Assembly (NCBI GenBank): GCA_045634805.1
Contig: JAZRAY010000121.1
Location: 1-51,179, forward strand
Origin: Succinivibrio sp.
Lineage (GTDB): Bacteria > Pseudomonadota > Gammaproteobacteria > Enterobacterales > Succinivibrionaceae
Direction: 5' to 3'
DNA: 51,179 bases
Shown here piece by piece: positions 16,235-50,927 of this stretch; positions within the stretch are counted from its first letter, which is position 1, and each line of letters starts with the position of its first letter. The translations under genes were made by a program, and so were the position numbers. The notes beneath the pieces are model-generated. The model did not search any database. It was not told the DNA's origin and was given only the letters and a program-made list of their open reading frames with translations.

Positions 16235-17212
16235 ATGAAGTATATATCTCTGTTCTCGGGAATCGAAGCTGCTTCATGTGCATGGTCAAAACTTGATGGA
16301 TGGAAGCCTATAGCCTTCAGTGAAATTGAGAAGTTCCCATGTAGCGTATTAAAACACCATTTCCCTGATGTTGCGAATATGGGAGATATAACAAAAATAA
16401 ACAGACAGACTATTGAGGAAGTCACAGATGGACAAGCAATCGACCTTGTTGTGGGAGGAAGCCCTTGCCAAGACCTGTCAGTCGGGGGGGGTAGAGCAGG
16501 AATACATGGAAAGCGTTCTGGACTGGCCTTCGAGTATCTTAGACTGCTCGCTATTATCCGACCTGAATGGGTGCTGTGGGAAAACGTCCCCGGAGTACTA
16601 TCGTCAAATCAGGGACGAGACTTCAAAGAACTCCTCAAGGCATTTAATGACGCAGGGTATGGTTGTGCATGGAGAGTGCTTGACTCAAAATACTTCGGAG
16701 TCGGTCAACGGCGCAGAAGAGTCTTTCTTGTGGGACATTTTGGAGACTGGCGACCTTCCGCAGCGGTACTATTTGAGCGCGAAGGCTTGTCAGGGAATCC
16801 TGAGAAGAGCCGAGGAACACAGAAAGATTTTACCCGATTCTCTGAAGAAAGCACTGGAGAAACAGAGTCAGATATAACCCATGGTTTTCACTGCTTCGGG
16901 GAGGGGAGTTTTTATACCTTCAGGGAACAGAATCAGGCTTCAACCCTTAAGGCAAGCGGTGGAAATCTTGGAGGAGGTTCTGAGAATTTCGTCTTTAGAA
17001 GCGGTGAACATCCTACTGATTTGAGAAAGCTTACTCCTAAAGAGTGTTTAAGATTGCAGGGGTTCCCGGATGACTGGTTTGACGGAGTGGAAGGATATTC
17101 GGACACTGCAGCTTATAAGGCAATAGGAAATTCAATGGCCATTCCCTGCATGTACTGGATTGGAAGAAGAATTCAGATGGTTGCTGATATTCTGAGAGAG
17201 AGGGGATATTAA
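16235..17212 (+). CDS. C5 cytosine DNA methyltransferase 1
   Basis: Motifs I SLFSGIEA, IV GGSPCQ, VI WENVPG, VIII QRRRRVF, IX LTPKECLRLQGF, X AIGNSM; G8 tract at 16484-16491. Confidence 0.95.
   Translation: MKYISLFSGIEAASCAWSKLDGWKPIAFSEIEKFPCSVLKHHFPDVANMGDITKINRQTIEEVTDGQAIDLVVGGSPCQDLSVGGGRAGIHGKRSGLAFEYLRLLAIIRPEWVLWENVPGVLSSNQGRDFKELLKAFNDAGYGCAWRVLDSKYFGVGQRRRRVFLVGHFGDWRPSAAVLFEREGLSGNPEKSRGTQKDFTRFSEESTGETESDITHGFHCFGEGSFYTFREQNQASTLKASGGNLGGGSENFVFRSGEHPTDLRKLTPKECLRLQGFPDDWFDGVEGYSDTAAYKAIGNSMAIPCMYWIGRRIQMVADILRERGY
16428..16877 (+). CDS. alternative-frame beta polypeptide nested in the methyltransferase (M.EcoHK31I-beta type)
   Basis: +1 frame open for about 150 codons; GAGG SD 9 nt before ATG 16428; C-terminal LWDILE..LPQRYYLSAKACQGILRRAE..K.LP..L..AL signature. 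Confidence 0.7.
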   Translation: MDKQSTLLWEEALAKTCQSGGVEQEYMESVLDWPSSILDCSLLSDLNGCCGKTSPEYYRQIRDETSKNSSRHLMTQGMVVHGECLTQNTSESVNGAEESFLWDILETGDLPQRYYLSAKACQGILRRAEEHRKILPDSLKKALEKQSQI

Positions 17213-17328: not shown

Positions 17329-18735
17329 ATGAGTGAACAGAGGAAAGTCACAGTAGTTCTTACCGTGCATGATGTCAAGCTCGGTTATCTTGTTGCGTGT
17401 CTGACTTCATTGGCTTTTCAGAAGTATAAAAATTTTGAAGTTTTGATAATTGATGACTGCAGCAAAACAGATTACTCCTTCCTGAAGAAGCCTTTTAAGC
17501 CTCTCCTCAGTCATCCGGCTCTAAATATTCGCTATGTCAGGAATGAAACTAATCTCGGTCTAAATGCTTCAGTGAATAAAGCTTTCTCTATGATTCAGTC
17601 TGAGTATGTAATCCGTCTTGGCTCAGATGATCTTTTTCATGAGGATATGCTCCTGAAGGAAGTCACTTTCCTTGATAAGAATTCTAATTACATCGCATGC
17701 TGCTGCGGTCTTCAGATGTTCGGTAGGAAGGATAATTACATCCATCGAGACAGAGAATGGACCTTAAACTGTAATCTGAGATTTAAGGCTAATGACTACG
17801 GCTATGGCGGTGGTATGCTATTCCGTTCTTCTGCCTTAGCTTACTGCAGGATTGATTCAAACCTTAAGATGTGTGAAGACTTCGACTTCCATCTCACGTT
17901 ACTAGAACATGGAAAGATTCATGGAATTGATGAGCCTCTGTATCAGTATCGACAGCATGAAAGGAATCACTGCAGAACAATCTCCAATACCGAGAGAAAG
18001 CAGTTCCTGGTATATATCTTCAATAAGCACCATGTGAACGATGATCTGATTTCAATTCTAATGCCGGTCCATAACACGAATCCGATGTTTGTCTCTGACT
18101 GCCTAGAATCACTTAAGAAACAGACCTACAAGAAATTTGAGATTATTTTCTACGATGATGGCTCATCAGTGGATTATAAGCACCTCTCAGCCTATAAGTC
18201 TCTCAGAAAGTATATTCGATACTTCCGAAACGATGTGAAGCAGGGAATCTCCAATACTCTGAATTTAGCATGTGAGAGGGCTCATGGCGAGTATCTGGTC
18301 AGAGTTGATTCTGATGATATCTGTGACAAGGAATTCCTTGAGAGGGAGATTAACTTCCTCAAAGAAAATCAGGATTATATCGGAGTCTGCTGCAATCTTA
18401 AGCAGTTTGGCTTAAATGACGAGATTATCTATCGTCCTTCAGTATTCGATATCAATTCGGTTCATGACCGCAAGAGCGCGCATGGGTATGGTTACGGCTG
18501 CGGAATGATGTTCAGAAGAAAAGCTCTGGAGTCATGTTTCTTTGATCCCGCCTTTGTTGTCTGTGAAGACTTTGATTTTCATCTTCAGCTTCTTAAGGTT
18601 GGAAAAATCAAAGGTCTTGGAGTGCTTTACTACTATCGACAGTATGAGGCCAGCACTATCCATCAGTACAACAACAAGCAGCGCTTTGAGCTGATAAATA
18701 AGATTTTAAAAAAACATAATTTACTTAAGGAGTAG
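17329..18735 (+). CDS. tandem double GT2 (GT-A fold) glycosyltransferase
   Basis: Two repeats, each with DD(C/G)S, RLGSDD/RVDSDD and CEDFDFHL motifs. Confidence 0.9.
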   Translation: MSEQRKVTVVLTVHDVKLGYLVACLTSLAFQKYKNFEVLIIDDCSKTDYSFLKKPFKPLLSHPALNIRYVRNETNLGLNASVNKAFSMIQSEYVIRLGSDDLFHEDMLLKEVTFLDKNSNYIACCCGLQMFGRKDNYIHRDREWTLNCNLRFKANDYGYGGGMLFRSSALAYCRIDSNLKMCEDFDFHLTLLEHGKIHGIDEPLYQYRQHERNHCRTISNTERKQFLVYIFNKHHVNDDLISILMPVHNTNPMFVSDCLESLKKQTYKKFEIIFYDDGSSVDYKHLSAYKSLRKYIRYFRNDVKQGISNTLNLACERAHGEYLVRVDSDDICDKEFLEREINFLKENQDYIGVCCNLKQFGLNDEIIYRPSVFDINSVHDRKSAHGYGYGCGMMFRRKALESCFFDPAFVVCEDFDFHLQLLKVGKIKGLGVLYYYRQYEASTIHQYNNKQRFELINKILKKHNLLKE

Positions 18736-18740
18736 AAAAC

Positions 18741-19256
18741 ATGAACGGAATTAACGAGGTTACTCTATTAGGCAATCTGACCGACGAACCACAGATAAGA
18801 GCTACCTCAAACGGAAAGAAAGTCGCAAGCTTTACCATTGCAACCAATGAATCCCATAAAGACCAGAGTGGTAACTGGGTGAGTGAGGCGGAGTATCACA
18901 GAGTTATTGCATGGGAGGGATTAGCCAATACAGTCGAGAAGTGTCTTCATAAAGGCTCTCCGGTTTTCGTTAAAGGCAAGATTAAGACCAGACAGTATCA
19001 GGGCAAAGATGGTCAGAATCGTTATGTGACCGAGATTCTGATTAACCAGATTGTGCTGATTGGAGATAGACCCAGGCCTCAGCAGGTAAATGGTAATGCA
19101 TATCCACAGAAGGGTAATGTAAAACCAAGCTACAACCGCAGAGCGAATAATGCTCAGTCAGACTTCAGCGGAATTCAGGCCAGGTATGACGAAAACGGGA
19201 GACCTTTGAATCAGAATAACCAGGAAGAACCAATAGACGACGAAGTGCCTTTCTAA
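18741..19256 (+). CDS. ssb: single-stranded DNA-binding protein
   Basis: INEVTLLGNL OB-fold start; acidic DDEVPF tail. Confidence 0.95.
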   Translation: MNGINEVTLLGNLTDEPQIRATSNGKKVASFTIATNESHKDQSGNWVSEAEYHRVIAWEGLANTVEKCLHKGSPVFVKGKIKTRQYQGKDGQNRYVTEILINQIVLIGDRPRPQQVNGNAYPQKGNVKPSYNRRANNAQSDFSGIQARYDENGRPLNQNNQEEPIDDEVPF

Positions 19257-19281
19257 TCTAATTAGACATAATCTCTCACAT

Positions 19282-19316
19282 AAAAAAGCCTGAGTAGGTA
19301 AGACCTCAGGCTTTTT
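19282..19316 (+). terminator. bidirectional intrinsic terminator
   Basis: AAAAAAGCCTGAG-loop-CTCAGGCTTTTT. Confidence 0.8.
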
Positions 19317-19490
19317 GCGTATTAGTGATCAAAAGTTTATTTTATGCAGTTCTTATTTTACACAAAAAATGTGATGAATTCACATGAATGTGACTGCTAT
19401 GCCTTTCTTTAACGTGTTTAACCCCTAAAATTAGAATCAGATAACAAAAAAACAACAAACAATCAAACAAACATTCTATTGGAGGAAAAC

Positions 19491-19922
19491 ATGTCACCGG
19501 TCTTGAATGAGGCTATTCAGAGCTATGACTCGTATTATCCATACGTGATGTCTTGGGGAGCATGGGCGAGACAAAACAAGGAGATTCCGAAAAATTACCG
19601 CTGCAGTCTTGGAAGATTTGTTCCTCCTGAAAGTAAAACCAATCTTTATCCAATCATCACTCAGGAAGTTGCTCAAGAGATAGACAACGCTTTTGCAAAG
19701 TCACGTCATACTCCCAAGAGTGGCAAGATTTCTGATTCAATAGATTTTCAATTAACTCAGTGGATGTTGGTGGCAGGGAATGACTCACTGGATGTTTTCT
19801 GCACTGCAAAATACCTCAAAAGGCTATTCAGAGAGAATAATCTCAAGTTTGACCTCCTGACAATCGAGTGGAAAATTCGTGATATCATTGAGAGGTCGAG
19901 AGGATATCTTCTGGCACTTTAA
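19491..19922 (+). CDS. putative late antiterminator Q
   Basis: SWGAWAR motif, size, and a pR'/tR' pair upstream of the lysis genes; ATG 19491 follows GGAGG. Confidence 0.55.
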   Translation: MSPVLNEAIQSYDSYYPYVMSWGAWARQNKEIPKNYRCSLGRFVPPESKTNLYPIITQEVAQEIDNAFAKSRHTPKSGKISDSIDFQLTQWMLVAGNDSLDVFCTAKYLKRLFRENNLKFDLLTIEWKIRDIIERSRGYLLAL

Positions 19923-20208
19923 ACCACCCTGAAAACACGTATAAAAAAATAAACAAAAATCACGAAGTGGTTAAAAGAGTGGTTAAAACAAGTTGCTTAT
20001 AGAATTAACTTATTGATTTTAAGTGAAATACAACATAAGGAAAGATTATGCAGTAATTTTTCCAAAAACCTCAATAAAAGCCTTTATAAATAAGGCTTTT
20101 TGCTTGTTTTTAAGCGGTTTTTTATCTTATCAAAATTTAATAAAACTTGTCAAAAATCGCTTAAAGTGGTTAAATATAACAAAATAAGTGGTCAAATAAG
20201 TGGTCAAA
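19918..20208. mobile_element. putative intact attP: arm-type repeats and IHF site
   Basis: RAGTGGTYAAA at 19965, 19977, 20164, 20186 and 20198; IHF consensus TAACTTATTGATT at 20006-20018; directly upstream of the integrase. Confidence 0.75.
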
Positions 20209-20219
20209 AAATTTAGTTT

Positions 20220-21428
20220 ATGCAAAACGGTTACAAGAAGGTATCCGACAGGATTCTTCGCACTCTTGTCCCTCCTGAAGGTAGGACATCAATCAACGTC
20301 CCTCTGTCAAAAGGTTTAAGCTTCAAAGCTATCTCTTACGATTACAAGGGTGAAACAAAAGTCACAAGGTCTTATATTTTCCGCTATACGCTCAACGGTA
20401 AGAAGTACAATCAATCTTTAGGCAAGGTTGAGGATTATACCATCGCCGAGGCAAGAGAGATTGCAGAGCGTTGTCAGGAGATTGTCTCAAAGTACAAGGT
20501 CAAACCCTCAGACTACATGCAGATGGAAGAGCTGAATCAGTCAGCTAAGACCCTTGAGGATTTGATTGAGACGTTTTTTGAACATCGGAAAAATCTTGCT
20601 CAGAACACTGTTGAGACATACAGACGCTCTGCCAAGGTTTTAGCTCCGCTATACGGTCAGCCAATCAATGAGCTTAAGGTTGCGGACTTCTCTGAGATTC
20701 TCTTGGAAGTCGGTCATGATAGACCAGGATTATCGAGATATGTCTGTGTGTTTATAAAGACGCTTTTCAATTTTGCTGTTTCAATCGGTCTACTCGAAAG
20801 TCATCCCTTCAACCGCCTAAGAGAGATGCAATACACTCCCAAGCATTTCAAAACAATCCCCATGAAGGACTATCAGACCGAGATAGCAGATGTCTTTGAG
20901 GTATTCGCAGACAAGGATATTCACAGAGTTAAGTCTCTGTTTGTTGCTCTTGGGTTCTTCACACTGCTTCGACCTGCCGAGGTGCAGAGTCTTAGAATCG
21001 AGGACATAAACCTGACTGAGAAATATATCTGGTGCCGTAAGACCAAGACCCTCAAGAATGGATTCAATGTACCTCTGACTGCTCCGCTGATTGCTTTGCT
21101 TGAAGTGATTCGTGACGGCAGAAAAGAGGGAGAATTCTTCCCGACCATTAAAATCAGGACTCTTGCTGTATTTCTCAGGAATCACAAAGTCCCTTTCAAT
21201 CTGCATGGATGGAGAGCTGCAGGAGCGTCATGGATGGTCCGCAATAAGATTTCCCTGCATATCGCTGATGCATGCTTATCCCATAAAATCGGAGATAAGG
21301 TCACTCTAGCCTATGTACGAGGCGATTTACTTGAGGAGCGCAGAGAAGCTATGGAACAGTGGCATCGCTTTTTATGCGGTGTTTTCGCTAACACTAAAAA
21401 CCTAGAATTTTTGTCTAAATATCAGTAA
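20220..21428 (+). CDS. int: tyrosine integrase (P4-like, arm-binding N-terminus)
   Basis: Catalytic R (LLRPAE), HGWR, LSH, Y (LAYVRG), RREAMEQW tail. Confidence 0.93.
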   Translation: MQNGYKKVSDRILRTLVPPEGRTSINVPLSKGLSFKAISYDYKGETKVTRSYIFRYTLNGKKYNQSLGKVEDYTIAEAREIAERCQEIVSKYKVKPSDYMQMEELNQSAKTLEDLIETFFEHRKNLAQNTVETYRRSAKVLAPLYGQPINELKVADFSEILLEVGHDRPGLSRYVCVFIKTLFNFAVSIGLLESHPFNRLREMQYTPKHFKTIPMKDYQTEIADVFEVFADKDIHRVKSLFVALGFFTLLRPAEVQSLRIEDINLTEKYIWCRKTKTLKNGFNVPLTAPLIALLEVIRDGRKEGEFFPTIKIRTLAVFLRNHKVPFNLHGWRAAGASWMVRNKISLHIADACLSHKIGDKVTLAYVRGDLLEERREAMEQWHRFLCGVFANTKNLEFLSKYQ

Positions 21429-21443
21429 GTTATAAAGAAAAAT

Positions 21444-21472
21444 TTGACAAAAAATGTGACCCACCTTATACT
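21444..21472 (+). promoter_or_regulatory. late promoter pR'-like
   Basis: TTGACA-17 bp-TATACT upstream of the lysis genes. Confidence 0.8.
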
Positions 21473-21510
21473 GAATTTAGTAAGATGGACAAATTGTCAA
21501 TATAGAGAAA

Positions 21511-21540
21511 GCCGTGAACCGATGAGGACACGGTTTTTTT
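21511..21540 (+). terminator. tR'-like terminator
   Basis: GCCGTG/CACGGT stem plus U-tract about 35 nt after the promoter. Confidence 0.75.
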
Positions 21541-21666
21541 GTTTCTATAAAAAAATTTCTAGTTGTTGAAAGTGTTCAAACCTTGTATGTAAAACATGAG
21601 ACGTGTCCGCCCCTTCCGGGAATAAATCCCCCTGAAGGGGTTTTCTTTTATGAGGGTGTGTAAAAA

Positions 21667-21981
21667 ATGCTGAAAGAATGGTTCAATGACGGGGGAGGAA
21701 TCTATATGACTATCGGTGGACTGACCTCTTTTGTGATGGCACTTCTCAGAGCCAAACATACCAAAATCGTTGACCGTCTGGGTGAAGCTGCCACATGCGC
21801 TCTACTTTCAACCGGCCTGATTACACTGGCTAATATTTACTATCCCGAGTATCCTCAGTGTTCAATCTTGATTGGAACCTTTGTCGGCTTCCTCGGCTCA
21901 GACTATCTGACTGAAATCATTAAGAACATCATCGGTTTTTTAGTTGATAAGCTTACCAATCGCGGAGGTTCATCAAAATGA
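21667..21981 (+). CDS. holin (lambda S-like)
   Basis: Three hydrophobic segments, IGTFVGFLGSD motif; precedes the lysozyme. Confidence 0.8.
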   Translation: MLKEWFNDGGGIYMTIGGLTSFVMALLRAKHTKIVDRLGEAATCALLSTGLITLANIYYPEYPQCSILIGTFVGFLGSDYLTEIIKNIIGFLVDKLTNRGGSSK

Positions 21982-22427
21982 AAATCAGTGACAACGGCAT
22001 TAACCTCATCAAGCAGTTTGAAGGCTTAAGACTTACTGCATATAAGGCTCATTACTCAGAGAGGCATTTTTCGATTGGTTACGGCCATTTTGGTCCTGAT
22101 GTCAAAGAGGGGGATACTTGCAACGAGCTTTACGCAGAAAACCTCCTGAAGAATGACCTTAAGATTTTTGAAAAGAGAATCAACAAGGGCCTAGAAGAAG
22201 ATCATATCGCTGTAAATCAGAATCAGTACGATGCGCTGATTTCTTTTGCTTACAACGTCGGTTCTGAGAATCTCCTTTCCTCGACCTTATGGCGCAAGCT
22301 TAAATCAGGGGATTATGAGGGTGCAGCCAATCAGCTCCTCCGTTGGAATAAATGCGGAGGTCAGATTCTTCCTGGTCTTGTAAACAGACGCGATAAAGAG
22401 CGCGCTCTGTTCCTTAAAAAGATTTGA
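21978..22427 (+). CDS. endolysin, GH24 lysozyme
   Basis: IKQFEGLRLTAY, IGYGH, NQNQYDALISFAYNVG, GLVNRRDKERALF. Confidence 0.93.
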   Translation: MKISDNGINLIKQFEGLRLTAYKAHYSERHFSIGYGHFGPDVKEGDTCNELYAENLLKNDLKIFEKRINKGLEEDHIAVNQNQYDALISFAYNVGSENLLSSTLWRKLKSGDYEGAANQLLRWNKCGGQILPGLVNRRDKERALFLKKI

Positions 22428-22449
22428 ATATAGTCTAAAAGTGAAAGAA

Positions 22450-22715
22450 TAGCTTTTCTCGGTTTTTCGGCGATTGGCACATCTTATGGCATGTGAAAAA
22501 ACCGAGACCACTTCATCGAAAATCGCAACCCTAAGGGCGCATAGTTCCCTATGTGATTTAAGTATCTTTTGACATCGTTATTGCCGTAACGGTACTGGTA
22601 CCTAAGACCTTATTTCATACGAATAAGCTATGCAGAGACGGCGACCATGTACATATCAGACATGATCCGCCCTCCGTCAGTTTTGTATTCCTGATGTCTC
22701 GACCTGAATACAAAT
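22450..22715 (+). ncRNA. candidate structured non-coding RNA (multiple stems, possible pseudoknot)
   Basis: Dense run of inverted repeats, e.g. 22457-67/22497-507, 22520-27/22552-59, 22637-41/22674-78, 22682-90/22706-14; no convincing ORF. Confidence 0.45.
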
Positions 22716-22719
22716 TATT

Positions 22720-22867
22720 ACCGACATCGGATAACGGGAGTCCATATAAGCGACTGACACATGATTGCTTAACGTTTTTTCTATCTGCAAATAAGAAAAA
22801 AATCTTTTTTGTTACTCAATCGTTATGAACTTATAGAGCGGTGGTTCAACTCCATCTGTCGGTACCA
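22720..22867 (+). tRNA. tRNA-like RNA with a 72-nt insertion in the anticodon arm
   Basis: Acceptor ACCGACA/TGTCGGT + A + CCA; D arm GGAT-AACGGGA-GTCC; anticodon stem ATAAG/CTTAT; T arm GGTGG-TTCAACT-CCATC. Confidence 0.7.
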
Positions 22868-23077
22868 CAACTAAAAAAATAATAAAACAGACATCTGGGA
22901 CGTTATAAAAATGGCTTTCTTAATCGAAAAACTGATCAAGGATTATACGCTTGAGTCTGGCTATAAGAATCACCGTTTCTGCGCTCCTCCTTGCAGTTAT
23001 AGTCGCGATACAAAAATCAACCGTAACAACAGCTCAACAGCACGTGTTGTGCTATGGCATAAGCTATGGAGAGACAA

Positions 23078-23581
23078 ATGCTACCCTTTAAGTCACATCT
23101 GATTGTAGGAGCCGTCTCTCTGATAATCGGTCTTGGTGCCGGTTATTCAATTCGAGACGAGAAAGCTCATATCAAAGATTTAGAAAACATTCAAAGCGCA
23201 TTGGAGCTTGAACGGGATAATTTGATTAAACAGCTTGAGGTCGAACATGAGTACCAGAAGGCAGCGCAAGCAACAGCTGAACAGGCGCAAGCGGATTTGG
23301 AATCGCTTGAAGCAAGCTATGCTGATGCTATCAATGAGCTTAATGATTTGCAGCTGTTCTACAGCACCCAAGATTATCAAGACGAATCAGCACTGTCCGA
23401 CGATTCCGAGTCTACCGGCTCAGTTCCAGAAGAGGGAAGTCAAAGCACTTCAGGCAACGAAAGAGAATTTCAAAAACTATATGAGGAACAGCTCAAAATC
23501 GCAAAAGACTGCGACATCACAACCTCATACTACAACCGAATTTTAGAGCTTTATCAGTCAATCGAGCAGAATCAGCAGTGA
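23078..23581 (+). CDS. inner-membrane spanin (Rz-like)
   Basis: N-terminal TM segment then coiled coil; hosts a nested lipoprotein ORF. Confidence 0.75.
   Translation: MLPFKSHLIVGAVSLIIGLGAGYSIRDEKAHIKDLENIQSALELERDNLIKQLEVEHEYQKAAQATAEQAQADLESLEASYADAINELNDLQLFYSTQDYQDESALSDDSESTGSVPEEGSQSTSGNEREFQKLYEEQLKIAKDCDITTSYYNRILELYQSIEQNQQ
23307..23546 (+). CDS. outer-membrane spanin lipoprotein (Rz1-like), nested in +1 frame
   Basis: Likely TTG start; MKQAMLMLSMSLMICSC lipobox followed by Pro-rich CPTIPSLP. Confidence 0.7.
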   Translation: MKQAMLMLSMSLMICSCSTAPKIIKTNQHCPTIPSLPAQFQKREVKALQATKENFKNYMRNSSKSQKTATSQPHTTTEF

Positions 23582-24297
23582 TACAGAAAAAAATAAGCGT
23601 AATTCTTACACTCTTCAATGTTCCGTCAGAATATGTGAGAGAGTGCTTCAATTCCTTGAAGTGTCAGACTTTCAAGAATTTCAAGATCATTGTGATTGAT
23701 GACTGTTCCGAGATTGATTACTCATGGATTAAGAGTTCAAATCAGTTTCAGGATTTAGAGATTGTCTATATCAGGAACAAAAAGAATTTAGGCTTATGTA
23801 AAACCGTCAACAAGGCTTTTGATCTCGTTGATACTGAATACTGCATCCGCTTAGGTTCGGATGACGTCTTTAACAGCGATCTTCTGCGCAAAGAGGTTGA
23901 ATTCCTTGAGCGTAATAGATTCGCTATTGCGGTATGCTGCGAGTTGCAGAAGTTCGGATGCTCCAATACGCTGATAAAAAGGCCTCTGTTATGGAATCCG
24001 GTTAAAATCAGACTCGCTGAAGAATTTATTCCCCATTATCACGGATGGGGATATGCGGGATCAATGCTTTTCAGAAGCTCCGCTCTTGAGATATGCCGGA
24101 TAAATGAGAATTATCCCATCTGTGAGGATTTTGATTTCCACTTACAGCTTTTAGAGCTTGGAGAGATTCACAGCATCCATGAACCGCTGTACTTATACCG
24201 CTCTCATGGGGATAACTACTGCAAGCAGTTCAAACGGGCAGACAAGAATCAGATTCTAATACAGATTATGAGAGAGCATGGACTTGTACTTGAATGA
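23578..24297 (+). CDS. GT2 glycosyltransferase
   Basis: VIDDCS, RLGSDD, CEDFDFHLQLL; closely resembles domain 1 of 17329..18735. Confidence 0.9.
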   Translation: MIQKKISVILTLFNVPSEYVRECFNSLKCQTFKNFKIIVIDDCSEIDYSWIKSSNQFQDLEIVYIRNKKNLGLCKTVNKAFDLVDTEYCIRLGSDDVFNSDLLRKEVEFLERNRFAIAVCCELQKFGCSNTLIKRPLLWNPVKIRLAEEFIPHYHGWGYAGSMLFRSSALEICRINENYPICEDFDFHLQLLELGEIHSIHEPLYLYRSHGDNYCKQFKRADKNQILIQIMREHGLVLE

Positions 24298-25058
24298 GCG
24301 GTTATGACGTAGTAATTCCGGTTAGGCCGGGGGAGAGAAATGAGGATTTGCGATTCTCTCTGCGCTCATTGGATAAATTTGGATTTAACATACGCAAAGT
24401 CTGGCTAGTTGGGTATCGACCTTCATGGGTCAGAAATGTTGAGATTTTACCCACTAGCCAACACCTCGACAAATGGCTTAACACTCGAAAGAACATTGAA
24501 TCTGCCTGTAGGTGTAAAGAAATTACGGATGATTTTATTCTGATGAATGACGACTTCATCCTTACTCAGCGAACCTCAGACTGGAGACATTTCAACGGCT
24601 ATCACCGAGGCACACTTTTTGAAAAGGAGTGTTTTTATAGCAGATTTCCTGACGGCAATGTCTGGAGAGAAGGATTCCATTTTAACCGTCAGATTCTGAT
24701 TCTTGCAGGATATGGCAAAGGGGAGTTTGAACCGCTCAATTATGAAGTTCACTTTCCAGTTGTCCTTAATCGTGAGAAGCGTTTAACACTGTTTGACCGT
24801 CCTGAATTCAGGAAGTACAAAAACGAATCAGACCCGCTTCTCTTTCAGCGGTCCATATACTTCAACCTTTACCCTCATGAGTTCCAGAGACAAATCTCAG
24901 ACGGTAAGATATTCACTGACGTTAAGAACTTTGACTATTTTAGACAGCACGAAGTTATCTCTGTCGCTGACAATGTAATCGGTGACAGAGATAAAGCCCC
25001 AATACTTCATCAATGGCTTGATGAGAATCTTTCTGAGAAGTCATGCTTTGAAGCCTGA
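24294..25058 (+). CDS. Stealth-family-like (hexose-1-phosphate transferase-like) protein
   Basis: DLRFSLRSLDKF, IRKVWLVG.RPSWV, ITDDFILMNDDFIL resemble Stealth conserved region 2. Confidence 0.7.
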   Translation: MSGYDVVIPVRPGERNEDLRFSLRSLDKFGFNIRKVWLVGYRPSWVRNVEILPTSQHLDKWLNTRKNIESACRCKEITDDFILMNDDFILTQRTSDWRHFNGYHRGTLFEKECFYSRFPDGNVWREGFHFNRQILILAGYGKGEFEPLNYEVHFPVVLNREKRLTLFDRPEFRKYKNESDPLLFQRSIYFNLYPHEFQRQISDGKIFTDVKNFDYFRQHEVISVADNVIGDRDKAPILHQWLDENLSEKSCFEA

Positions 25059-25648: not shown

Positions 25649-26668
25649 ATGTTTGACTGGAAATGGAATCTATCCGATATAAATCAGAATAAACCTCTCA
25701 AGGTATTTACAATCTTCAGCTGTGGCGGTGGTTCCTCAATGGGCTATAAGAAAGCCGGATTTGAGGTCATTGGAAACTGTGAGCTAGACCCTCGCATTAA
25801 CAAGGTTTATGTAAAGAATCACCATCCAAAGTATAACTTCCTGATGGATGCAAGAGAGTTTGCGGGATTAGACAAATATCCTGACGAACTGATGAATCTT
25901 GATATTCTTGACGGTTCTCCTCCATGCAGTACCTTTTCAACCTCAGGCAAACGTGAGAAAGCTTGGGGAGTAATGAAAAAATTTGCAGAAGGACAGAAGC
26001 TCCAGAGACTTGATGATCTGTTTTTCGTCTATCTGGAGATAGTCAGAAAGCTAAGACCTAAGGTATCTATCGCTGAGAATGTAACAGGCTTAGTCAAAGG
26101 AAACGCAAAAGGCTATGTAAGTGAAATTATTAAAACTTACAGAGAGCTTGGTTATGAAGTACAAATCTTCAAGCTAAACGGTGCCTTCATGAATGTTCCT
26201 CAGAAAAGAGAGCGAGTATTCTTTATCGCTAACCGTTGCGGATTCCCTAAGTTAAAGCTGAATTTTAACTATAAGCCTATTCTCTTCGGTGATGTTCGTT
26301 CCGAGCATGGAAGTACATCAGGAATCAATCCTGGTACTGAGACTTATAAGTTAATAAGTCAGATTCAGATTCAGGACCATGATTTATCAGATGTCTGCAA
26401 GAGACTTAAGGGTAAAGAAAGTCACTTCAGTTCCAAGATAAATCATGACAATGAAGTCGCTTATACCTTGGATGCAGGTTCTTTAATGCTCAGATACTGC
26501 GACAAGCTGGCTCTGTCAAAACAGGACATAATCAATATTTCGAGCTTTCCTCAGGATTATGACTTTTTAGACCAGAGTCCACAGTTTATCTGTGGAATGA
26601 GCGTACCGCCTAACATGATGGCTAATATTGCCTCAGAGATTTATAAACAATGGTTTGCTAAAGGGTAG
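25649..26668 (+). CDS. C5 cytosine DNA methyltransferase 2
   Basis: FSCGGGSSMG, GSPPCSTFS, AENVTG, PQKRERVFF, GMSVPP. Confidence 0.92.
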   Translation: MFDWKWNLSDINQNKPLKVFTIFSCGGGSSMGYKKAGFEVIGNCELDPRINKVYVKNHHPKYNFLMDAREFAGLDKYPDELMNLDILDGSPPCSTFSTSGKREKAWGVMKKFAEGQKLQRLDDLFFVYLEIVRKLRPKVSIAENVTGLVKGNAKGYVSEIIKTYRELGYEVQIFKLNGAFMNVPQKRERVFFIANRCGFPKLKLNFNYKPILFGDVRSEHGSTSGINPGTETYKLISQIQIQDHDLSDVCKRLKGKESHFSSKINHDNEVAYTLDAGSLMLRYCDKLALSKQDIINISSFPQDYDFLDQSPQFICGMSVPPNMMANIASEIYKQWFAKG

Positions 26669-50132: not shown

Positions 50133-50171
50133 TTAACTGGAGAAAAGAGGAATAGAATTATTCATTTCTCT

Positions 50172-50324
50172 TTAAATTAAATACATCACAATGTCTTTGT
50201 AGATAGGCTTAAAATGCCATAGTCCCTGATGTAAGCTGTCTCTCAATTTCCATGCATTTCTTCTGTGCTGAACGGTGAGATATAACATGTATGCGCTAGT
50301 GTATTTTCTATACTTCCGTTTCAT
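50172..50324 (-). CDS. MKxKY-family small protein (50 aa)
   Basis: MKRKYRKYTSAYMLYLTVQH...; 40/50 aa identical to 50775..50927. Confidence 0.75.
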   Translation of the reverse strand: MKRKYRKYTSAYMLYLTVQHRRNAWKLRDSLHQGLWHFKPIYKDIVMYLI

Positions 50325-50593: not shown

Positions 50594-50772
50594 TTTTTAG
50601 ATTCCAGTAACATTTTTAATAGGTCATTACTTAGTTTTAATTCTTTATAATTTTCTTTTATATAAAGATAATCTCTTTTCCAAACACCTTTACCGATCTT
50701 GTATTTGGTAACATGTATCATATTTAAATAAAACATATAAAGGTTTGTGAATTTTTTATATTTCCGTTTCAT
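50590..50772 (-). CDS. MKxKY-family small protein
   Basis: Near-copy of 1..140. Confidence 0.75.
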   Translation of the reverse strand: MKRKYKKFTNLYMFYLNMIHVTKYKIGKGVWKRDYLYIKENYKELKLSNDLLKMLLESKK

Positions 50773-50774
50773 AT

Positions 50775-50927
50775 TTAAATTAAATACTTCGCAATGTCTT
50801 TGTGAATAGGTTTAAAACGCCATAAACCTAAATATAAGCTATCTCTTAACTTCCATGCAGTTTTACGGTGTTGAACGGTGAGATATAACATGTATGCGCC
50901 AGTGTACTTTCTGTATTTAGCTTTCAT
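50775..50927 (-). CDS. MKxKY-family small protein (50 aa)
   Basis: MKAKYRKYTGAYMLYLTVQH...; GGAG SD. Confidence 0.75.
   Translation of the reverse strand: MKAKYRKYTGAYMLYLTVQHRKTAWKLRDSLYLGLWRFKPIHKDIAKYLI

Follow-up and report, generated by a model that had tools for sequence, protein, structure and literature searches.

A tRNA-shaped RNA gene with a predicted rod for its anticodon arm in the lysis region of a lambdoid-like phage, and its relatives

Among the systems closest to the locus described here is the engineered tRNA scaffold, a laboratory construct in which the acceptor, D and T arms are kept and a hairpin-closed passenger replaces the anticodon stem-loop; in E. coli, RNAs of this design are described as stable and as substrates of the cell's processing enzymes (PMC3753655, in excerpt). 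Phage T4 encodes RNAC and RNAD (species 1 and 2), stable RNAs of 139 and 119 nt that are expressed late and whose function is given as unknown in the excerpted text of PMC9697503. Some irregular tRNAs, in turn, are reported to be inactive in translation and to lie near toxin-antitoxin genes (PMC5389517, in part). The locus considered here holds a tRNA-shaped element that an earlier note had read as a possible tRNA with a 72-nt insert in its anticodon arm. Our search of the literature, with supplements outside its scope, returned no description of the family to which we assign it.

Setting and fold of the element

The window, by which we mean the whole stretch of 51,179 nucleotides analysed, is one entire contig (G000:C121) with a layout like that of a lambdoid temperate phage, including genes for a repressor, a DnaB-like helicase, an integrase, a holin, an endolysin, a terminase, a portal protein and a tail fibre. 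Its assignment to a host rests on binning into a genome (G000) of 2.1 Mb that is 76% complete. Imperfect direct repeats towards the contig ends, with 1-141 repeated at 50633-50773 (93%) and 50171-50324 at 50774-50927 (82%), suggest that the phage genome is circular or has recombined. Mid-contig (20220-21428), between the replication and late-regulator region and the lysis promoter, lies a tyrosine integrase that has an arm-binding domain; in the search for an attachment core in a tRNA, no host tRNA from the 76% complete genome matched the window at E<=0.05. At 17329-18735, 23578-24297 and 24294-25058 lie glycosyltransferase genes and a Stealth CR2-like gene, two of them within the late region from the spanins to the terminase, and two cytosine methyltransferases lie at 16235-17212 and 25649-26668.

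The element fills the gap between the end of the endolysin gene and a small ORF plus spanin-like pair that begin from 22911 (Table 1). The spanin-like ORFs matched no family in the database search; a homologue lies 3' of the element in eight of nine relatives, which makes 9 of 10 sequences with the window, the contig of L202 ending early. The only promoter-like site in 21300-23200 is likely to be the late promoter, and a terminator-like hairpin (21624-21643) stands between it and the holin; the same scan gave the element neither a promoter nor a terminator of its own. From the single upstream promoter and the hairpin before the holin we infer expression as part of an antiterminated late transcript. 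At the spanin-like start, 23060-23076 is a 16/17 copy of the ATAAGCTATG.AGAGAC motif. Runs X1 and X2 alter four bases within it, including the ATG at 23066, so this copy of the motif is not conserved and the true spanin-like start probably lies downstream.

Table 1. Features of the lysis region and of the tRNA-shaped element (positions in the window)
Feature	Position	Strand	Basis or remark
Sigma-70-like promoter, TTGACA-17-TATACT, 11/12	21444..21472	+	sole promoter-like site in 21300-23200
Holin	21667-21981	+	PHROGs phrog_126
Endolysin	21978-22427	+	PHROGs phrog_7
Rod A, directly behind the endolysin stop	22457..22507	+	fold z -3.06; rod of similar design in relatives, sequence differs
Element B/C: hairpin GGG-CGCATAGTT-CCC, loop 22539-46 can pair over 8 bp with AGCTATGC (22626-33)	22534..22633	+	predicted pseudoknot
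Element D: predicted three-way junction, GAGAC/GTCTC closing two hairpins	22635..22714	+	weakly supported
U at -1; predicted RNase P cut between 22719 and 22720	22719	+	T at -1 in 10/10 family sequences
tRNA-shaped non-coding RNA gene, 148 nt	22720..22867	+	direct reading, ARAGORN with introns, frame descriptor, syntenic relatives
Acceptor stem 5' strand, pairs with 22857-22863	22720..22726	+	pair probability 0.75-1.0
U8, D stem 22729-32/22740-43, D loop with A14 and GG	22727..22743	+	unchanged in the divergent variant
Extended anticodon arm: 6-bp base stem 22745-50/22830-35, then irregular 79-nt rod	22745..22835	+	constrained fold, arm-alone fold, variant test
Rod pairs 22755-58/22822-25, 22763-67/22817-21, 22770-74/22810-14, 22775-82/22794-801	within 22745..22835	+	predicted
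4-nt variable loop and T arm (TTCAACT loop)	22836..22856	+	direct reading
Acceptor 3' strand, discriminator, encoded CCA	22857..22867	+	A-rich trailer after CCA
Likely spanin pair with nested lipoprotein-like ORF 23235-23546	23066..23581	+	position and nesting

The perfect 7-bp acceptor stem, encoded ACCA, D arm and T arm that had been read within these 148 nt were confirmed by direct reading and by a frame descriptor. The acceptor ACCGACA/TGTCGGT forms seven Watson-Crick pairs and is followed by A73 and an encoded CCA; the D arm reads GGAT-AACGGGA-GTCC and the T arm GGTGG-TTCAACT-CCATC. The anticodon stem given as ATAAG/CTTAT is also present, but really comprises 6 bp, which leaves a variable loop of 4 nt. 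The tRNA frame is beyond chance: a strict frame descriptor returned this site alone in the window and 0/200 dinucleotide shuffles, and over the 2.1-Mb genome it returned 33 normal-length tRNAs and one long frame, this element. ARAGORN under default settings found no tRNA and no tmRNA anywhere in the window. With introns allowed it did return the parse of the earlier note, His(atg) i(32,72), at full threshold, but the same mode also called two spurious 'intron tRNAs' within coding sequences of the host. Rfam gave nothing in the window at gathering score, and only chance-level matches at 19000-23200, 22420-22920 and L176 1930-2400; its tRNA model RF00005 scores the 3' half of the element only, at 15.9 bits against a cut-off of 29. 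The whole element folds with z = -1.49. Folded alone, in a model that leaves out tertiary contacts, the cloverleaf is 1.1 kcal/mol less stable than the minimum; a hairpin at 22747-71 that competes with it has a probability of 0.7-0.8, and the D and anticodon stems have probabilities of 0.04-0.08.

The insert of the earlier note was held to be closed by pairing of its ends, CGACTGA/TCAATCG, a pairing that has a probability of about 0.01 and stands at 5/7 in a natural variant. The rod that it saw inside fared better, since TAAC/GTTA and T6CT/AGA6 both lie in the supported rod; CTGCAAA, however, falls within an 11-nt apical loop rather than a 7-nt anticodon-like one, and no 7-nt anticodon loop is found at the anticodon-arm position. 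Nor did UU-AUG-AA hold up as a canonical-looking loop, as its 5' bases (22822-25) pair within the rod and AUG becomes AAG in the variant (22826).

Natural variants of the window's own copy came from contigs of eight public DNA runs aligned to the region. X1 and X2 differ from the window by 17 and 23 listed substitutions in the flanks and by none in the element, and X6 has G rather than A as discriminator. A divergent allele occurs in X3, X5 and X7 (three runs from two studies), with 12 listed changes; it comes from contigs of depth 2-3, and 2/14 differences are unlisted. Set against a structure predicted beforehand from the window alone, its listed changes divide into one among the 59 positions of the frame and 11 among the 79 of the arm (Fisher p 0.013), and none of the 12 breaks a pair of cloverleaf plus rod, where 3.7 would be expected (P about 0.003). 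Four changes fall on pairs, all of which are kept (A-U to G.U or back), and eight fall in loops; the allele adds three pairs inside the internal loops of the rod, alters the loop around CTGCAAA and removes 2/7 pairs of the competing hairpin. This pattern indicates that 22751 to 22829, insert included, form one unbroken rod, which takes in the supposed anticodon loop. The changes in the rod that support it are one-sided, with no true compensatory pair in the window's arm.

Between the endolysin and the element lie three predicted structures (Table 1). The place of rod A, the first 80 nt behind the endolysin, is taken by rods in L009, L176, L201-L204, L281, L288 and L311, with an asymmetric internal loop and, in most relatives, TRTACCAC..GCC; in L009, L203 and L281, T|ACCG comes next, with a stem that ends in TGGTG-AG, and this resembles a degenerate second acceptor stem. 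Element B/C is present in the window and in L009, L176, L201, L202 and L281, with AGCYATRY as its downstream motif. All 8/8 pairs of its predicted pseudoknot are kept in 6/6 sequences having it, two of them by double changes in L202, and the first pair is G.U or G-C. It had no Rfam match, and its pattern, with a gap range that excludes the window's copy, matched once in 401 genomes of the order (G033); it may possibly be a separate small structured RNA. Element D has the same topology in five relatives with different sequence (for example L176:2107-2190), with one double change in the closing stem of L202, and pairing may be possible between its second loop and the tail 22706-14, which immediately precedes the 5' end of the tRNA-like part. 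Directly 5' of every member there is a structured element, either rod A (L204, L288, L311) or element D (window, L009, L176, L201, L202, L281). Two other readings of this stretch were rejected. A -10 box at TAAGCT is at odds with L202 and run X3, where the final T is C, and the motif is a pairing partner of hairpin B. Comparison by eye with the consensus of hammerhead, HDV-like, pistol and twister ribozymes gave no fit, and Rfam gave no match to any of them.

Relatives and conserved features

Nine distinct relatives, 97-140 nt long, were found in related prophages, where they occupy the corresponding position after the endolysin. The first, reached through endolysin homology, was L009, a 140-nt RNA with the same frame, and all ten sequences lie 79-523 nt behind an endolysin homologue. 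One relative is carried by G022, a genome of the window's genus, and one by G033, a single-contig genome that is 99% complete; with G000 counted, 3/98 genomes of the bacterial family have a member. Model R1, built from the six relatives with a branched arm, gave two matches over these 98 genomes, both known members. It scores the three short-arm members at 52-57 bits and ordinary tRNAs at 18-29 bits, but misses the window element at E<=0.1. Global identity of the window element to the relatives is 41-59%, and we infer its kinship with them from position, the shared B/C motif, design and descriptor matches. A descriptor that the window also satisfies matched eight contigs among all viral contigs, and 8/8 were these loci, from which the descriptor had itself been designed.

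Among endolysin loci with at least 500 nt downstream (L288, L306 and L311 left out), a T arm with CCA follows the endolysin in 8/9 loci at >=60% identity (5/6 distinct), in 0/10 at 50-60% and in 4/106 below 50%, these four being two real cases, one remnant and one chance match. Of 23 loci with a homologous spanin, 15 had no T arm plus CCA within 900 nt of the endolysin. Given its absence from so many related lysis cassettes, the element is an accessory insert.

Other searches added little. The 5' pattern gave 33 matches in viral contigs, of which 9 were family members and 24 had no 3' end and were dropped; in genomes it gave six, one on the L009 contig and five scoring <=17.6 bits with R1. For the 3' pattern, 112/120 matches had a normal-length tRNA frame. 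A blastn search of annotated phages and plasmids found no real homologue, a DNA search of 60 relatives' genomes gave 0/60, and exact or near-exact window-type patterns in viral contigs gave 0 matches in one scan and, in another, ten that had the D-arm letters alone in common and no tRNA frame. Ten near-identical viral loci (L326-L335) carry the D-arm letters GGATAACGGGAGTCC in a G/C-closed hairpin with no T arm nearby, perhaps by chance. A holin search of viral contigs found none.

In L190 the T arm, acceptor 3' strand and CCA alone stand directly behind an endolysin with an internal TGA, and this locus is a deletion remnant. In L009 a HicB/HicA toxin-antitoxin pair (Pfam; L009:4178-4648) starts about 80 nt behind the CCA, and L190, L288 and L306 have the same downstream sequence as this region; the 3' end of the element seems to collect cargo. 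An unrelated 96-kb viral contig carries two long tRNA-shaped RNAs beside a normal tRNA (L089:1396-1525 and 1668-1791), and the second, of 124 nt, has a cloverleaf whose anticodon stem opens into two hairpins as in the L009 group, so that the long-armed tRNA-like design appears to recur. Upstream of an annotated tRNA-Met in Acinetobacter phage vB_AbaM_ME3 (L346, about 544-629) a tRNA-like sequence lies unannotated; its acceptor/T helix looks like the 8/4 form, its anticodon loop has UCU and its T arm is the same as in L009, but no D arm is clear.

What the ten sequences keep is the frame. A1-C2-C3-G4 paired with YGGT, U8, A14, the D-loop GG, the encoded CCA, T at -1 and a T loop of TTCRANT occur in 10/10, and the distance from T loop to discriminator is 12 nt in 9/10. 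The acceptor-T helix has 12 bp (11 in L176), arranged 7/5 in the window and L311 and 8/4 in most others. Among the relatives, acceptor pairs vary in both of their bases, and the discriminator varies even among close ones, being A in the window, G in X6 and G or T in the relatives. The arm takes three forms, a 91-nt rod in the window, an 83-86-nt three-way junction in six relatives and a 43-45-nt hairpin in three, with hairpin loops of 11 nt in the window and 4 and 6 nt in relatives. The branched arms, from sequences 71-99% identical, share an invariant GACG tetraloop; 97.5% of 278 cells are paired, and 9/48 pairs show double changes. That number was matched in 1/500 shuffles, and slid controls gave 0-2 such pairs; the six sequences are related, and the shuffle count is therefore not a probability. 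Gathering homologues and checking them for covariation, as had been proposed, thus gave a covarying branched arm.

ARAGORN under default settings found 0/10 family members. Its intron-allowing parses of the relatives gave Ser GCU, Leu GAG, Asn GUU, Leu UAA, Cys GCA, Glu UUC and in one case none, with insertion positions spread over 28-37, and no anticodon is common to the ten sequences. Selection acts on the frame, features of the ribosome decoding site and most synthetase features are not conserved, and the sequences together indicate an undescribed, selected family of phage non-coding RNAs.

Possible functions

The explanation that we favour, with a probability of about 0.55, is a conserved tRNA-shaped RNA gene with a folded rod for an anticodon arm, excised from the late transcript as a non-decoding scaffold with an accessory role. 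RNase P prefers U at -1 and reads the 12-bp ruler of the acceptor-T helix. RNase P RNA is present in G000, and the 12-bp helix, a 3' RCCA (UCCA in one subgroup) and a single-stranded leader are all found in the family; pairing of RCCA with RNase P RNA and a role of N-1 are reported in the excerpted PMC12710915, and excerpts of PMC12710915 and PMC10424219 describe CCA-end enzymes and elbow-binding proteins that read features of the conserved set. The options of a tRNA mimic and of an RNase P processing signal, both raised by the earlier note, fit these conserved features, and the element may work as a tRNA mimic of the RNase P-substrate kind. Because the conserved set consists of features of maturation enzymes and of the elbow, and because the engineered scaffold offers a precedent, excision as a stable non-decoding RNA seems the better reading. 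Transcription would run from the promoter at 21444 by antitermination, as part of the late transcript; host RNase P would cut at 22719/22720, 3' trimming would mature the RNA to its CCA, and the released RNA would persist as a stable, non-decoding 'tRNA scaffold' RNA acting in trans late in infection. The rod is likely never to be spliced.

In trans, the RNA may be a decoy or sponge: host proteins that recognise uncharged tRNA by its CCA end, its first base pairs and its elbow would bind the RNA instead, and the arm would provide an exchangeable surface for binding. The toxSAS toxins are described as reading CCA and acceptor pairs 1, 2, 4 and 5 and as acting in antiphage defence (PMC11559606, in part); with the first four pairs and CCA fixed in the family, this selectivity would favour a decoy or binding platform, a role put forward as a guess. 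A decoy role and another arm-dependent partner would share the favoured explanation about evenly. A decoy for anticodon nucleases, as once suggested, is unlikely since no anticodon-like loop is kept. The ACCG start was found in 0/39 host tRNAs of the 76% complete genome, the nearest being tRNA-Leu(CAA) with GCCG. As for an antisense target, no significant complement turned up in G000 (best E 0.10) or G033 (best other E 3.5), and for the idea of a CRISPR-repeat mimic a simple scan of G000 returned no CRISPR array.

A doubtful alternative, though one that deserves serious attention, is that the element acts in cis as punctuation, its excision by RNase P and RNase E defining the 3' end of A, B/C and D and splitting the late mRNA into lysis genes and spanin and packaging genes; the arm would then need only to stay folded. 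The structured element directly upstream of every member, the conservation of the frame and not of the arm (down to 43-45 nt in three members) and the want of a promoter or terminator of its own are all as expected of such a handle, and RNase P is described as processing the phage M3 and C4 RNAs and mRNAs (PMC11143913, in part). Yet the long branched arm, with its invariant GACG tetraloop and double changes in six sequences, exceeds what a handle needs, and the 15/23 spanin-homologue loci without the element imply that expression of the lysis genes does not require it. We consider it unlikely that the locus is an RNA-only counter-defence module, with an invariant shell released by RNase P, exchangeable payloads and upstream pseudoknotted RNAs freed in the process; if this were true, the module would be switched on just when capsid synthesis triggers tRNA-targeting immunity.

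Decay of a once functional phage tRNA, with an Arg- or Trp-like ACCG acceptor, after an insertion is very improbable. Ordinary phage tRNAs with ACCG, GCCG or ATCG acceptors are common, the L190 locus with its interrupted endolysin keeps a T arm and CCA only, and the folding energy of the element is weak, but the frame is intact in 10/10 sequences at identities down to 41%, both bases of acceptor pairs vary, substitutions keep away from the frame and from pairs, and no normal-length allele was found at the locus. The earlier note had offered an ordinary tRNA decaying after random insertion as the outcome that would overturn its reading; the conservation pattern and the covariation among relatives contradict it, and together with the variant test largely refute decay. 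Aminoacylation by a synthetase that ignores the anticodon (LeuRS, SerRS), diverting EF-Tu or the amino acid, has an equally small chance. Most relatives have the 8/4 acceptor-T form, as in allo-tRNAs, A73 and pairs 2-4 match the host tRNA-Leu(CAA), and irregular tRNAs that are charged yet non-translating are reported in part of PMC5389517; against this, members have A, G or T as discriminator, with differences among close relatives too, and there is neither a long variable arm nor G3.U70.

Least credible of all is a tRNA whose 72-nt intron is spliced out to leave a 76-nt tRNA with anticodon AUG, the novel intron-containing tRNA of the earlier note: ARAGORN's intron mode returns that parse at full threshold, but AUG and the discriminator both change in variants, the relatives give six other anticodons or none at shifting positions, run contigs show no joints or insert-less copy, and the shortest member still has 97 nt. 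Group I and II introns have a catalytic core (P3-P8 or domains I-VI) and normally exceed 200 nt, and group I introns have U before the 5' splice site. The insert, as had been said, is too short for a group I intron, no Rfam group I/II match was found, and the base before it is G22750. A splicing endonuclease, said to be generally lacking in bacteria, was indeed not found: tRNA_int_endo (PF01974) and RtcB (PF01139) were each found in 0/5 genomes of the genus with controls positive, two of the five being single-contig and 96-99% complete and phage hypothetical proteins only partly screened. The earlier note found A34, A73 and no G-1 at odds with normal tRNA-His; that of the host is of the usual GUG/C73 type. 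Alphaproteobacterial phages do include a His lineage that has A73 and lacks G-1 (PMC5389517, in part), and introns are predicted in tRNAs of Lak phages, insert-less alleles being described for one of them (PMC6784885, in part).

Comparison with known systems

With canonical tRNA (RF00005) the element shares the acceptor, discriminator and CCA, U8 and A14, the D-loop GG, the T arm, a 4-nt variable loop and the base of the anticodon stem, but it has no 7-nt anticodon loop or conserved anticodon, and its arm runs to 43-91 nt in the family. The tRNA-like domain of tmRNA and bacterial Y RNA (YrlA) likewise join a tRNA-like body to a long RNA in place of the anticodon arm. YrlA has permuted ends, whereas the element has native 5' and CCA ends; no TROVE/Ro60 gene was found in five genomes, and no Rfam Y RNA match. 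Unlike tmRNA, the element has C3-G70 and no G3.U70, no tag frame, and no tmRNA call or Rfam match.

Allo-tRNAs and irregular polycistronic tRNAs (PMC5389517, in part) have a 12-bp acceptor branch as well, 8/4 or 7/5; of the 8/4 and 9/3 forms of allo-tRNAs, most relatives fit 8/4, the window and L311 being 7/5 and L176 having 11 bp. The HicB/HicA pair behind the CCA in L009 recalls the toxin-antitoxin neighbours described there; allo-tRNAs, however, have an anticodon loop and a long variable arm, in place of which the element has a 4-nt variable loop and no anticodon loop. The tRNA frames of Lak phages are also interrupted in the anticodon arm and found only with intron-allowing settings, but their inserts are near-identical across cohorts, one with insert-less alleles, in the excerpted PMC6784885, whereas the arms of this family differ in length and shape.

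Like the element, T4 RNAC has a long rod, and a T arm close to the 3' end, but its predicted fold shows no cloverleaf of D arm plus anticodon stem; RNAC and RNAD lie in the tRNA cluster of a virulent phage, while the element stands alone in a lysis cassette with no other tRNA in the window, and R1 matched neither rnaC nor rnaD. The element is thus not a member of the tRNA, tmRNA, Y RNA, allo-tRNA or T4 RNAC/RNAD groups. RNAC/RNAD and the 'enigmatic' tRNA introns of phages are nonetheless old loose ends on which this family bears: it suggests that what looks like an intron in a phage tRNA can be a structured arm that stays in place permanently, that selection may keep just the parts read by maturation enzymes, and that such genes escape default tRNA finders and Rfam. 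The engineered tRNA scaffold (PMC3753655, in excerpt) matches the element in design, differing in that it is a laboratory construct whereas the element belongs to a natural phage-encoded family with three arm types and predicted processing; if the arm binds a protein, the element would be a natural version of that scaffold.
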